A stretch of 5,447 nucleotides of DNA from a virus (lineage: Duplodnaviria; Heunggongvirae; Uroviricota; Caudoviricetes): the IMG/VR virus record IMGVR_UViG_2737471848_000024; one strand, given 5' to 3'. Positions 1-4,556 of this stretch are shown here, piece by piece (the stretch's first letter is position 1; the number at the start of each line of letters is the position of its first letter). Position numbers and translations under genes: made by a program. The notes beneath the pieces were generated by a model. That model did not search any database and was not told where the DNA came from. It saw only the letters and a list, made by a program, of their open reading frames with translations.

Positions 1-138
1 GAAGTGGAACTGGCCACACTCACGTGGGTGGACTGGTATAACAATCGACGATTGCTGGAAAGGCTGGGCCATACTCCTCCGGCAGAAGCAGAAAAAGCTT
101 ATTATGCTTCCATCGGAAACGATGATCTGGCAGCCTGA
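1..138 (+). mobile_element. 3' end of a transposase ORF (rve/DDE integrase-core C-terminus, IS3-family-like); 5' part lies outside the window
   Basis: Frame 1 is open from the window edge to TGA at 136-138 and translates to EVELATLTWVDWYNNRRLLERLGHTPPAEAEKAYYASIGNDDLAA. The W-x-D-W-Y-N-x-R-R-L ... P-P-x-E-x-E-x-x-Y-Y tail is typical of the C-terminus of IS3-family OrfB transposases. The exact IS and its terminal inverted repeat (expected within about 139-185) could not be identified by eye. Confidence 0.55.
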
Positions 139-655: not shown

Positions 656-3127
656 ATGAGTAAAGTCTTTATTTGCGCCGCCATTCCTGACGAACTGGCA
701 ACAAGGGAAGAAGGCGCTGTGGCTGTAGCCACAGCTATTGAAGCTGGCGACGAACGCCGTGCTCGAGCAAAATTTCACTGGCAATTCCTGGAACATTATC
801 CGGCTGCTCAGGACTGCGCTTATAAATTTATTATCTGCGAGGATAAACCTGGCATACCCCGCCCTGCCCTCGATTCATGGGATGCTGAATATATGCAGGA
901 AAACCGCTGGGATGAGGATTCTGCTTCTTTTGTCCCGGTTGAGACTGAATCCGATCTGATGAACGTCACTTTTGACAAGCTGGCCCCTGAAGTACAGAAC
1001 GCTCTCATGGTTAAGTTCGACACATGTGAAAACATCACCGTTGATATGGTTATTAGCGCACAGGAATTGTTGCAGGAAGACATGGCAACATTCAACGGAC
1101 ATATCGTTGAAGCGTTGATGAAAATGCCAGAAGTTAACGCCATGTATCCGGAGCTTAAGCTGCATGCCATCGGGTGGGTTAAGCATAAATGTAAGCCTGG
1201 TGCCAAATGGCCCGAAATTCAGGCAGAGATGCGCATCTGGAAAAAACGTCGCGAAGGTGAACGCAAGGAAACCGGAAAATACACGTCTGTTGTTGATCTC
1301 GCCCGCGCCAGAGTCAATCAACAGCACACTGAAAATTCAACAGGAAAAATCAGCCTGGTCATTGCTGCCATTCATCGCGAATACAAACAGACATGGAAAA
1401 CACTGGATGACGAACTGGCCTACGCTCTCTGGCCTGGTGATGTGGATGCCGGAAACATTGACGGCAGCATCCATCGCTGGGCAAAAAATGAAGTTATCGA
1501 CAACGACCGCGAAGACTGGAAGCGTATCTCGGCATCAATGCGCAAACAGCCTGATGCCCTTCGCTACGACCGCCAGACTATTTTTGGCCTTGTCCGTGAA
1601 CGTCCGATCGACATTCACAAAGACCCTGTGGCACTGAACAAATACATTACTGAATACCTGACTACAAAGGGCGTGTTTGAAGATGAAGGAACAAATCAGA
1701 GCGCAACTGACACTCTCTCGTCGCCAGTACCAGAAACTGATGCAGTGGAAACGGCAATTCCGGACAACGAAAAAACCGAATGCAAAGTGGAAGTCGAACC
1801 ATCTGTAGAGCGTGAGGGGCCGTTCTACTTCCTCTTCACCGACAAGGATGGCGAAAAATACGGTCGCGCAAACAAACTTTCTGGTCTGGATAAGGCACTG
1901 GCTGCCGGGGCTACTGAAATCACGAAAGAAGAATATTTCGCCCGCAAAAACGGTACATACTCAGGTTCACAACAAAATACTGGTGCATCTGACACGACCG
2001 CACAACCAGAGCCGGTAAAAGTTACCGCTGACGAAGTAAACAAAATTATGCAGGCAGCCAATATCAGCCAGCCTGACGCCGATAAGTTGCTTGCTGCCTC
2101 TCGCGGAGAATTTGTTGCAGGGATTAGCGACCCGAATGATCCGAAATGGGTTAAGGGGATCCAGACCCGCGATTCTGTAAACCAGAACCAGCATGAATCG
2201 GAACGGAACTACCAAAAAGCGGAACAAAACAGCCCAAATGCGTTACAAAACGAGCCAGAAACGAAACAGCCTGAACCAGTGGCGCAACAGGAAGTGGAAA
2301 AAGTCTGCACCGCCTGCGGTCAGACCGGCGGCGGCAACTGCCCTGATTGTGGCGCGGTGATGGGCGACGCAACATACCAGGAAACATTCGATGAAGAGTA
2401 TCAGGTTGAAGTTCAGGAAGATGATCCGGAGAAAATGGAAGGCGCTGAACATCCACACAAGGAGAACACTGGCGGCAATCAGCATCACGATAGCGATAAT
2501 GAAACTGGCGAGACGGCAGATCACTCAATTAAGGTGAACGGTCATCAAGAAATCACATCCACCAGCAGGACGTGTGACCATCTAATGATCGACCTTGAAA
2601 CCATGGGAAAAAATCCTGATGCCCCGATCATCTCAATAGGTGCAATATTTTTCGATCCGCAAACCGGAGATATGGGACCGGAATTTAGTAAGACTATCGA
2701 TCTGGAAACTGCTGGCGGAGTCATTGATCGGGACACCATTAAATGGTGGCTTAAGCAATCACGCGAAGCGCAATCTGCCATTATGACCGATGAAATCCAG
2801 TTAGATGATGCACTGTTACAATTGCGGGAATTTATCGACGAAAACTCCGGTGAATTTTTTGTTCAGGTCTGGGGAAATGGAGCCAACTTCGACAACACGA
2901 TTTTGCGCCGTTCATACGAACGGCAGGGGATCCCCTGCCCGTGGCGTTACTACAACGATCGCGATGTACGCACAATCGTTGAGCTGGGGAAAGCCATAGA
3001 CTTCGATGCCAGAACGGCTATTCCATTCGAAGGTGAGCGCCATAATGCACTTGATGACGCCCGTTACCAGGCAAAATACGTTTCAGCTATCTGGCAAAAA
3101 CTGATCCCGAGTCAGGCTGATTTTTAA
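656..3127 (+). CDS. Prophage exonuclease, 823 aa (annotated in enterobacterial prophages as exodeoxyribonuclease VIII-like / YdfE-like), with a C-terminal DEDDh 3'-5' exonuclease domain
   Basis: Long ORF with GAGG 10 nt upstream of the ATG. The C-terminal ~185 aa carries the three DnaQ-like motifs: MIDLETMG (Asp 2591-2593, Glu 2597-2599), WGNGANFD (Asp 2891-2893) and HNALDDARY (His 3041-3043, Asp 3056-3058). The middle ~290 aa are acidic and Gln/Asn/Thr-rich, and contain a DKLLAASRGEFVAGISDPNDPKWVKGIQTRD patch that I recall as shared with RecE-family proteins (uncertain). It occupies the position of ydfE in K-12 Qin. Confidence 0.85.
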   Translation: MSKVFICAAIPDELATREEGAVAVATAIEAGDERRARAKFHWQFLEHYPAAQDCAYKFIICEDKPGIPRPALDSWDAEYMQENRWDEDSASFVPVETESDLMNVTFDKLAPEVQNALMVKFDTCENITVDMVISAQELLQEDMATFNGHIVEALMKMPEVNAMYPELKLHAIGWVKHKCKPGAKWPEIQAEMRIWKKRREGERKETGKYTSVVDLARARVNQQHTENSTGKISLVIAAIHREYKQTWKTLDDELAYALWPGDVDAGNIDGSIHRWAKNEVIDNDREDWKRISASMRKQPDALRYDRQTIFGLVRERPIDIHKDPVALNKYITEYLTTKGVFEDEGTNQSATDTLSSPVPETDAVETAIPDNEKTECKVEVEPSVEREGPFYFLFTDKDGEKYGRANKLSGLDKALAAGATEITKEEYFARKNGTYSGSQQNTGASDTTAQPEPVKVTADEVNKIMQAANISQPDADKLLAASRGEFVAGISDPNDPKWVKGIQTRDSVNQNQHESERNYQKAEQNSPNALQNEPETKQPEPVAQQEVEKVCTACGQTGGGNCPDCGAVMGDATYQETFDEEYQVEVQEDDPEKMEGAEHPHKENTGGNQHHDSDNETGETADHSIKVNGHQEITSTSRTCDHLMIDLETMGKNPDAPIISIGAIFFDPQTGDMGPEFSKTIDLETAGGVIDRDTIKWWLKQSREAQSAIMTDEIQLDDALLQLREFIDENSGEFFVQVWGNGANFDNTILRRSYERQGIPCPWRYYNDRDVRTIVELGKAIDFDARTAIPFEGERHNALDDARYQAKYVSAIWQKLIPSQADF

Positions 3128-3185: not shown

Positions 3186-3389
3186 ATGAGCAGCTTATTT
3201 TTAACCGAAGATGAATTGCTAATATTAACGGGCTGCAAATATGCAAGCCACCAGCGAAAATGGTTAATGGAAAACGGGCTTCCGTTCTATACCAATCGTA
3301 GTGGCAAACCGATTGTCAGCCGGGATCTATTTACCTGCAATAAAACTTTACCACCACGCGAGGTAGAGCCGAATTTTGGTGCGATCTGA
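3186..3389 (+). CDS. Small excisionase-like protein (putative recombination directionality factor), 67 aa
   Basis: Small ORF directly upstream of the integrase; its stop TGA (3387-3389) overlaps the int ATG (3389-3391) by 1 nt, suggesting translational coupling. Size and position are typical of xis in lambdoid int-xis modules. The call is mainly positional; the sequence (MSSLFLTEDELLILTGCKYASHQRKWLMENGLPFY...) resembles DUF4224-type small proteins from memory only. Confidence 0.55.
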   Translation: MSSLFLTEDELLILTGCKYASHQRKWLMENGLPFYTNRSGKPIVSRDLFTCNKTLPPREVEPNFGAI

Positions 3390-4414
3390 TGGGAAGACGA
3401 AGGAAAAATCCTGAACACGAAAAATTACCTCCAAATGTATACCCAAATAAATATAGTTATGTATGGAAACCAACATCCAGAGAATCTGTAACACTAACCG
3501 CCATCAAGGATGGTTTAGCTGCTTTATGGAAAAAGTATGAGGAAACTGTAAATAATCGCGATCGTGCAATGACATTCGGTCGCTTGTGGGAAAAATTCCT
3601 CGCCAGCGCCTGTTACAGTGACCTTAGCCCAAGAACACAAAAAGATTATCTGCAACATCAAAAAAAGTTGCTTGCCGTATTCGGTAAGGTACCAGCGGAT
3701 TCCATAAAACCAGAACACATCCGTCGATACATGGACAAAAGAGGGGAACAGAGCAAAACGCAAGCCAACCATGAAAAAAGCAGTATGTCCCGCGTTTACA
3801 GTTGGGGATATGAGCGAGGGTACGTGAAGGCTAACCCATGTGCAGGTGTAAGTAAATTCAAGGCCAAAAACCGCGAACGATATGTAACCGACAAAGAATA
3901 CCAGGCAGTATTAAGCGTTGCACCTCTTCCTGTTTTTATCGCAATGGAAATTGCCTATCTGTGTGCAGCGAGGGTTTCCGATGTGTTATCGCTGAAATGG
4001 GAGCAGATTGGAAACGACGGGATCTTTATCCAGCAAGGGAAAACAGGGAAAAAACAGATAAAAGCATGGAGTCCACGATTACAGGCGGCGATCGAAAAAG
4101 CAAAACAGTTACCAACATCCGCCTATGTAATCAGCAATCAATACGGCAACCGATATATGTACAAAGGCTTTAACGAAATGTGGGTAGAAGCAAGAAATCG
4201 CGCAGGCAAAATTTCAGGTATTTTAACCGACTTCACCTTTCATGATCTGAAGGCGAAAGGAATTTCAGACTATGAAGGAAGCAGTCGGGATAAGCAACTT
4301 TTCTCTGGTCACAAAACCGAGGGGCAAGTGCTAATCTATGACAGGAAGGTTAAAGTTTCACCGACACTTGATGTCCCGTTACCTGAAAATATTCCAAGAA
4401 AATATTCCAAGTAA
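3389..4414 (+). CDS. int: Lambda-family tyrosine integrase (site-specific recombinase), 341 aa
   Basis: N-terminus MGRRRKNPEHEKLPPNVYPN parallels the lambda Int arm-binding N-terminus MGRRRSHERRDLPPNLYIR. Catalytic region: box I Arg in AARVSDVLSLKW; box II TFHDLKAKG (lambda TFHELRSL); GHKTEGQVLIYDR (lambda GHKSDTMASQYRDDR) with the nucleophilic Tyr. It ends 52 bp before the tRNA 3' end. Confidence 0.9.
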   Translation: MGRRRKNPEHEKLPPNVYPNKYSYVWKPTSRESVTLTAIKDGLAALWKKYEETVNNRDRAMTFGRLWEKFLASACYSDLSPRTQKDYLQHQKKLLAVFGKVPADSIKPEHIRRYMDKRGEQSKTQANHEKSSMSRVYSWGYERGYVKANPCAGVSKFKAKNRERYVTDKEYQAVLSVAPLPVFIAMEIAYLCAARVSDVLSLKWEQIGNDGIFIQQGKTGKKQIKAWSPRLQAAIEKAKQLPTSAYVISNQYGNRYMYKGFNEMWVEARNRAGKISGILTDFTFHDLKAKGISDYEGSSRDKQLFSGHKTEGQVLIYDRKVKVSPTLDVPLPENIPRKYSK

Positions 4415-4421
4415 TTCCAAG
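4386..4421. repeat. Tandem direct repeats: 2 x 13 bp AAAATATTCCAAG plus a third partial copy TAATTCCAAG, spanning the int stop codon
   Basis: Read directly: 4386-4398 and 4399-4411 are identical; 4412-4421 repeats the ATTCCAAG core. The copies are read in different codon phases (NIPR vs KYSK), so the repetition is at the DNA level. Confidence 0.8.
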
Positions 4422-4466
4422 TGTGATTTTTGTCACTGACTTAATGATGTATAAGTGATTGAATTT

Positions 4467-4556
4467 TGGCGGAGAGAGGGGGATTTGAACCCCCGGTGGA
4501 GTTGCCCCCACTCCGGTTTTCGAGACCGGTCCGTTCAGCCGCTCCGGCATCTCTCC
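4467..4556 (-). tRNA. serU: tRNA-Ser (anticodon CGA), 90 nt including CCA, with a long variable arm
   Basis: Reverse complement reads GGAGAGATGCCGGAGCGGCTGAACGGACCGGTCTCGAAAACCGGAGTGGGGGCAACTCCACCGGGGGTTCAAATCCCCCTCTCTCCGCCA. It has a 7-bp acceptor stem, anticodon loop CUCGAAA (anticodon CGA) and a T-arm GGTTCAAATCC. It closely resembles E. coli serU as recalled, and mtfA is adjacent as in K-12. Confidence 0.9.

Follow-up and report, generated by a model that had tools for sequence, protein, structure and literature searches.

Tandem repeats at the end of a serU prophage integrase gene as predicted arm-type sites of a lambda-like attP

The analysed stretch of DNA, a window of 5,447 nucleotides, constitutes the int-proximal right end of a lambdoid prophage residing in the tRNA-Ser(CGA) gene of E. 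coli. It contains, in this order, an exonuclease gene, a gene coding for a DUF4224 protein, the integrase gene, a short array of repeats, the tRNA-Ser(CGA) gene and the host gene mtfA. The exonuclease gene (656-3127) encodes a protein of 823 residues, whose match to Rv2179c-like 3'-5' exoribonucleases is confined to the last ~180 residues and whose first ~640 residues, which are partly acidic and of low complexity, are without a Pfam match. The DUF4224 protein (3186-3389, plus strand) is a probable excisionase (RDF), a function predicted by annotation from its match to PHROG 1266 'excisionase' (E 3e-21), and the stop codon of its gene overlaps the start codon of int. The latter (3389-4414, plus strand) encodes a tyrosine integrase of 341 residues resembling lambda Int over its full length. 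On the opposite strand, the serU gene for tRNA-Ser(CGA) (4467-4556, minus strand), which was rebuilt at an attR-type junction, directs its 3' end towards int.

Several complete E. coli chromosomes match the window with 100 % identity over a stretch that encompasses int, the repeats and the tRNA, and the region of int and repeats was found in about 1152-1155 of 5426 complete E. coli genomes, which amounts to about one fifth. Lambdoid prophages that carry effector genes are known to integrate at serU in Shiga-toxin-producing E. coli (PMC7067040). The prophage spans ~49 kb in one of the 100 % identical complete genomes, NZ_CP062871.1 (L003), whose coordinates equal those of the window plus 44847. 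At its other end, which carries the P arm of the attachment site, the type III effector genes nleF, nleH (frameshifted), a fragment of nleC and nleB2 (L003 1000-4160) adjoin tail-fibre genes, and the element belongs to the effector-exchange prophages of attaching-effacing E. coli.

The repeats at the 3' end of int share the octamer ATTCCAAG, which is located on the plus strand at 4391-4398, 4404-4411 and 4414-4421 with a spacing of 13 and then 10 bp, and a pattern search found no further exact copy in the window. The first two octamers are part of an exact tandem duplication of GAAAATATTCCAA (4385-4397 and 4398-4410), which in another register reads AAAATATTCCAAG (4386-4398 and 4399-4411), and the third belongs to a shortened copy, TAATTCCAAG (4412-4421), within which falls the stop codon TAA of int (4412-4414). 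Direct reading, repeat finding, TRF and pattern searches all confirm the 13-bp tandem repeats and degenerate third copy described in the original prediction, and the different codon phases in which these copies are read are evident from the translation (..PENIPRKYSK*). [quoted passage not shown] The entire 49.9-kb prophage locus contains seven copies of ATTCCAAG compared to 2.2 expected, five of which are found within ~130 bp of the two att junctions. This pattern is not a product of chance. In the following, the three copies at the end of int are treated as putative outer (P'3-like, 4391-4398), middle (P'2-like, 4404-4411) and inner (P'1-like, 4414-4421) P' arm-type sites, the last of which overlaps the stop codon.

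The comparison with an uninterrupted serU locus that had been suggested along with these sites allowed us to place the crossover. At the far end of the prophage, a copy of the 3' part of serU (L003 226-287) corresponds to positions 4467-4528 of the window with two mismatches, which defines a 62-bp block common to attP, attB, attL and attR. Relative to the empty site of strain DH1 (L016), the far-end copy is native (A..T) whereas the copy in the window is supplied by the phage (G at 4498 and C at 4509). Because native residues are found at the far end and those of the phage in the window, the crossover has to fall within 4510-4528. [quoted passage not shown] The crossover region consists of the anticodon stem-loop CCGGT-TTTCGAG-ACCG(G), in which two perfectly inverted arms enclose a loop of 7 nt. 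Such an inverted repeat around a 7-nt anticodon loop is the classic core of integrases that are aimed at anticodon loops. Based on the comparison of attB, attL and attR and on attP-type junctions, we predict a core at 4513-4529, in which the stem arms CCGGT and ACCGG would serve as inverted core-type sites and in which the 7-nt loop enclosed by them, TTTCGAG (4518-4524), is the likely overlap region. In seven IMG/VR contigs, P', core and P arm are contiguous and contain the phage-type G..C, and these contigs may represent either excised genomes or tandem prophages. Two phage records, ON470580 and ON470583, were discarded as a source of attP, both being prophage predictions with host flank (mtfA, asnT) that do not contain it. 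The substitutions at 4498 and 4509 form a compensatory pair in the variable arm of serU, and lysogens therefore express a slightly altered tRNA-Ser(CGA). [quoted passage not shown]

On the other side of the core, the P arm of L003 contains two exact copies of ATTCCAAG, an inverted one at 327-334 and a direct one at 392-399, each situated beyond a box matching the IHF consensus, and the copies at the opposite att arm that the original prediction had proposed to search for are thus present. In the 130 bp of the P arm ~0.006 copies would be expected and the presence of two corresponds by our own calculation to P ~2e-5, for a motif that had been defined from the P' side. Six different serU prophages, when aligned over their P arms, have diverged there apart from a few invariant blocks. 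These encompass TTGGAATAAAT with the inverted site, AGAATATTCCAAGC with the direct site and two AAAATCAA boxes that match the IHF consensus WATCAANNNNTTR. The similarity between the six arms ends a few bases past the outer site, as would be expected for the border of a functional attP. On the P' side, the SNPs distinguishing different alleles hit the GAAAA spacer and spare ATATTCCAAG. Another stretch of the P arm, AAATGTCTTAAAAACATACACG (L003 335-356), lies past the inverted site, ahead of the second IHF box, and is kept in five of the six diverged arms, where it may offer the only obvious room for excisionase sites in this compact region.

With offsets counted from the centre of the anticodon loop, the P' sites are centred at -103.5, -113.5 and -126.5 bp and are all direct. 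Between them and the core, a candidate H'-like IHF site, ATTCAATCACTTA (4452-4464, minus strand, offset -63), which is proposed from the consensus only, contains one mismatch to WATCAANNNNTTR. The P arm continues with an H2-like box at +31 bp, which is a perfect IHF consensus, the inverted inner P site at +50.5 bp, an H1-like box at +86 bp, which contains one mismatch here and is perfect in other alleles, and the direct outer P site at +115.5 bp. The resulting layout thus comprises P1 in direct orientation, H1, an inverted P2, H2, the core, H' and three direct P' sites reaching the stop codon of int. Compared to shuffled sequences, one perfect IHF consensus was found where 0.03 would be expected and four with at most one mismatch where 0.85 would be expected, numbers that describe matches to a consensus and not binding. 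A U-turn at -63 would place the P' sites at ~22, 12 and 0 bp from the core, compared to estimated values of ~17, 7 and -3 bp in lambda. The native attB flank carries a perfect IHF consensus, TAAGTCATTGATA, where the phage copy constituting the candidate H' site has one mismatch, and this candidate site may simply be host-derived flank. The interval separating the candidate H' site from the inner P' site contains a near-palindrome, GTGTGATTTTTGTCACTGAC (4422-4440), to which the excisionase or a different factor could bind.

The roles of arm-type and IHF sites in the attP of lambda have been described (PMC4880445). In the sequence of lambda itself, P1 and the three P' sites share the same orientation, P2 is opposite, IHF sites are found in between and the stop codon of int is located inside P'3. 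The three tandem P' sites on the int-proximal side, to which the repeats had initially been compared, are thus indeed adjacent to int. The serU attachment site resembles this arrangement in its five sites, three of which are tandem, direct and beside int, in a P' site that overlaps the stop codon of int (P'3 in lambda, the inner site here), in the inverted inner and direct outer site of the P arm, in the IHF consensus boxes between sites and core and in an xis gene that is upstream of and overlaps int. The repeated motif, with three copies on P' and two on P, is distant from and unlike the core CCGGT-TTTCGAG-ACCGG. Differences to lambda concern the motif itself, which is ATTCCAAG instead of CAGTCACTAT-like, and the core: lambda uses a common core of 15 bp at an intergenic site, the serU phage a tRNA anticodon stem-loop that is part of a 62-bp block of identity. 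Since the 3' half of the tRNA intervenes, the P' sites are found ~100-127 bp from the core, whereas this distance is ~55-80 bp in lambda, and their spacing is 10 and 13 bp in contrast to ~10-11 bp. Conversely, the P arm is tighter, with the inner site at +50 compared to about -106 in lambda, and leaves no space between H2 and P2 for lambda-like Xis and Fis sites.

The integrase contains the catalytic and core-binding domains of tyrosine recombinases (PF00589 and PF22022) and is ~20 % identical to lambda Int, to which it is homologous over the full length including the MGRRR..LPPN N-terminus (phmmer E 6e-13 over residues 1-313, aligned from residue 1). The best Foldseek matches of its AlphaFold model (pLDDT 84) are to full-length lambda Int (341 columns, E 3e-16). 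For residues 1-60 (encoded by 3389-3568, plus strand), a three-stranded sheet followed by a helix is predicted, which corresponds to the fold of an arm-binding domain, and the best match of this beta-beta-beta-alpha unit in the PDB is the arm-binding domain of lambda Int on P'2 DNA, although a Foldseek search with the N-terminal model alone gives an E of 0.3. At the level of sequence, the backing for an arm-binding domain is weak. Pfam did not detect such a domain in full-length Int, PF09003 (Arm-DNA-bind_1) scores below its cut-off on the N-terminal 70 residues (15.7 compared to 22 bits, E 0.016, profile positions 1-19), a precomputed PF09003 domain is found in 0 of 120 homologues and PDB sequence searches with the N-terminal domain by phmmer and by profile were not significant (profile E 1.9). 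An alignment with the N-terminal domain of lambda Int by hhalign yields a probability of 54 % (E 1.3e-4). The claim of a lambda-like N-terminal domain in the original prediction thus holds with respect to the fold and to the alignment with lambda Int from its first residue, whereas the Pfam signature stays below threshold.

We have identified 80 relatives of the integrase, one genome per species, which are 34-71 % identical and adjoin genes for tRNA-Ser(TGA), tRNA-Leu(TAA) or tRNA-Ser(CGA), whose 3' end is always directed towards int. Among the 39 loci with a neighbouring tRNA (relatives with 38-64 % identity), 34 contain an exact tandem 8-mer with 9-16 bp spacing at the 3' end of int, compared to 0.93 expected from shuffles, while among 117 control segments taken from within int only 4 have this feature. 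Successive copies are spaced 12-13 bp apart, as in the window, and a third copy, where there is one, follows at 10-11 bp. The motifs vary by lineage and include TATTCTAAG, ATATTAGGAA, CATCTTCGGA, ATATTATGAA, ATATTCTGAA, TATTCCCC, ATATTACCAAA, TATTCGGAA and GAGTTACC. Because the start of the array ranges from 63 bp before to 200 bp after the stop codon of int, it is not tied to the protein. Where P arms are visible, they contain IHF consensus boxes at +16..21 and +71..76, an inverted site at ~+40-52 and a direct site 61-66 bp further (L087, L044, L037 and L024; 45 bp in L019). Like sites in related prophages, a check that the original prediction had put forward, are thus found as tandem arrays whose motif recurs on the visible P arm, such as TTAGGAA on both arms in Serratia (L087) and ATATAG(C/T)GAAA on both arms in Arsenophonus (L044). 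Two loci combine TTACGAAA on P' with ATAGCGAAAA on the P arm (L037) and ATAGTGAAA on P' with TTACGAA on the P arm (L045), and this pair constitutes reciprocal hybrids of the kind that tandem prophages of two types produce. L037, L044 and L045 are contigs of Arsenophonus triatominarum with junctions ~150-330 bp past the stop codon of int at a tRNA-Leu(TAA) gene, and the hybrid junctions, which join two integrase types with different arm motifs, indicate tandem polylysogeny of related phages in this symbiont. Two further loci, L019 and L024, also contain unlike motifs on the two arms, and the motif of their P arm equals the one that another locus from Sodalis, L022, has on P'. With reference to the Arsenophonus hybrids, which form such junctions, we have read them, without proof, as places where tandem prophages of unlike type meet and have thus set them aside, not rigorously, as counter-examples to covariation. 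Across the family, the motif covaries with the integrase, with array and spacing conserved while the motif changes. A one-to-one covariation between residues of the N-terminal strands and bases of the motif (alignment A3) is suggestive only.

In light of these observations, we consider it likely that the three ATTCCAAG repeats are P' arm-type sites with predicted binding by Int, and that they belong to a lambda-like attP in which the anticodon stem-loop of serU provides the core. The proposal of candidate arm-type sites, from which the analysis had started, has thereby gained support from the copies on the other arm, the conserved islands and the arrays of the family. Instead of the N-terminal domain of Int, another protein of the recombination module might recognize the sites, such as a host factor or the DUF4224 excisionase. 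Excisionases such as lambda Xis likewise bind short direct repeats in att arms (PMC4880445), and no separate Xis sites have been identified here. However, the sites follow the pattern of the arm sites of lambda Int, with three direct P' sites and one inverted and one direct P site; in lambda, only the P arm contains Xis sites, whereas ATTCCAAG is found on both arms, Int has a domain with an arm-binding fold and the motif changes with the lineage of the integrase. Recognition by another protein is thus unlikely.

The 13-bp unit (4385-4410), which was identified by TRF as variable-number tandem repeat with two units in the window, is present in one (L008), three (L007 and L141) or four copies (L178) in other E. 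coli strains, whereas ~92 % of 1152 genomes match the two-unit form at an identity of at least 95 %. Unit counts by regular expression on IMG/VR loci were unreliable, with spacer SNPs breaking the pattern, and they were not used for frequencies. The reading frame is open in the alleles with one, two, three and four units, which encode integrases of 345, 341, 360 and 358 residues. Changes in unit number shift the frame of the tail and alter only residues after ..PENIP, while the conservation of the integrase family ends at about residue 330 and thus ahead of the repeats. The annotation by PGAP (NCBI) flags the commonest two-unit int as frameshifted pseudogene (window 3389-4439, L003 48236-49286), whereas alleles with one, three and four units and a divergent two-unit allele are annotated as intact. 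This label is probably an annotation artefact of the number of repeat units, and hundreds of genomes would thus probably carry a wrongly flagged integrase.

From the variation in unit number it is evident that slippage generates part of the array, and the original prediction had named a strain-specific slippage duplication as an outcome that would speak against it. A functionless duplication at the end of int, whose likeness to arm sites would be coincidental, is consistent with the presence of one to four units in otherwise near-identical E. coli prophages and with the unconserved tail that the repeats encode. It does not account for the one-unit allele, which still holds two ATTCCAAG sites, for the two further copies on the other arm in conserved islands, for the tandem arrays in 34 of 39 distant relatives or for a motif that covaries between arms. 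This reading, which we regard as extremely improbable, is already largely refuted; the strain-specific variation is real, but the arrays are family-wide with motifs that change along with the integrase. The array is thus a mildly unstable tandem repeat that probably serves as a set of functional DNA sites as well. In its exact 13-bp units, in their number of one to four among close strains and in the frame shift at each step it resembles variable-number tandem repeats found at gene ends, from which it differs in that there is no sign of rapid switching, with 92 % sharing one state, that the encoded peptide is unconserved and that the units carry a conserved DNA motif. A frame-shifting polymorphism in unit number among close strains, one feature of a phase-variable locus, is present; frequent on/off switching is not supported in the 1152 genomes, ~92 % of which are in one state, with an ORF that is always open.

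The same polymorphism would also be compatible with an array that acts mainly on the expression of int or the activity of its product, either by slippage as a switch of the tail or as 3' block or terminator, and not in intasome assembly. Each change in unit number shifts the frame of the tail, the modal allele is treated as frameshifted by PGAP and the C-terminal tail of lambda Int modulates its activity. In most relatives, however, the array is located downstream of the stop codon, by up to +200 bp, and since it is past this codon it cannot act through the protein. The family conservation ending before the repeats and a unit number shared by 92 % of the copies in E. coli, which does not resemble a fast switch, further contribute to making such an effect highly improbable. 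A related proposal, in which the 13-bp unit would serve as a tuning knob, with slippage giving two to five P' sites and rewriting the tail of Int, and thus leading to heritable differences in the efficiency of integration and excision between lineages, appears very improbable. If true, it would describe a contingency mechanism on intasome stoichiometry in a very common E. coli prophage.

For the predicted arm-type sites, we envisage, by analogy with lambda, a mechanism in which the small N-terminal domain of Int would bind the three P' sites together with their two counterparts on the P arm, while the C-terminal domains of the same molecules would bind the core at the serU anticodon stem-loop. 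Bends introduced by IHF at the candidate sites, whose offsets from the centre of the core are about -63, +31 and +86 bp, would unite arms and core, and the resulting intasome would perform integration and, together with the DUF4224 excisionase, excision. In this scheme, the binding by Int and by IHF, the points at which the DNA is cleaved and the way in which the sites are divided between integration and excision are inferred. A comparable organization is found in the integrase of the Yersinia HPI (arm-binding domain PDB 3jtz), which also targets a tRNA gene, the 3' part it displaces being replaced by a copy on the element, and has arm repeats far from the core. Further heterobivalent tyrosine integrases with a tRNA gene as target are those of P22, HP1 and L5 and IntS of KplE1/HK620. 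From all of these, the serU integrase differs in its lineage and its motif. The mechanism itself belongs to textbook knowledge. The individual sites and the architecture that covaries across the family appear not to have been described before, and the searchable literature contains no description of the arm sites of this serU/serT/leuZ-type integrase family.

Our analysis provides a complete and testable map of the attachment site, with a core, five arm sites and three candidate IHF sites, for prophages that include effector-carrying ones of Shiga-toxin-producing strains at serU. It describes an integrase family at tRNA-Ser and tRNA-Leu genes across Gammaproteobacteria that keeps the architecture of the lambda attP while swapping the arm motif, and which thus constitutes a ready natural data set on arm-site specificity.
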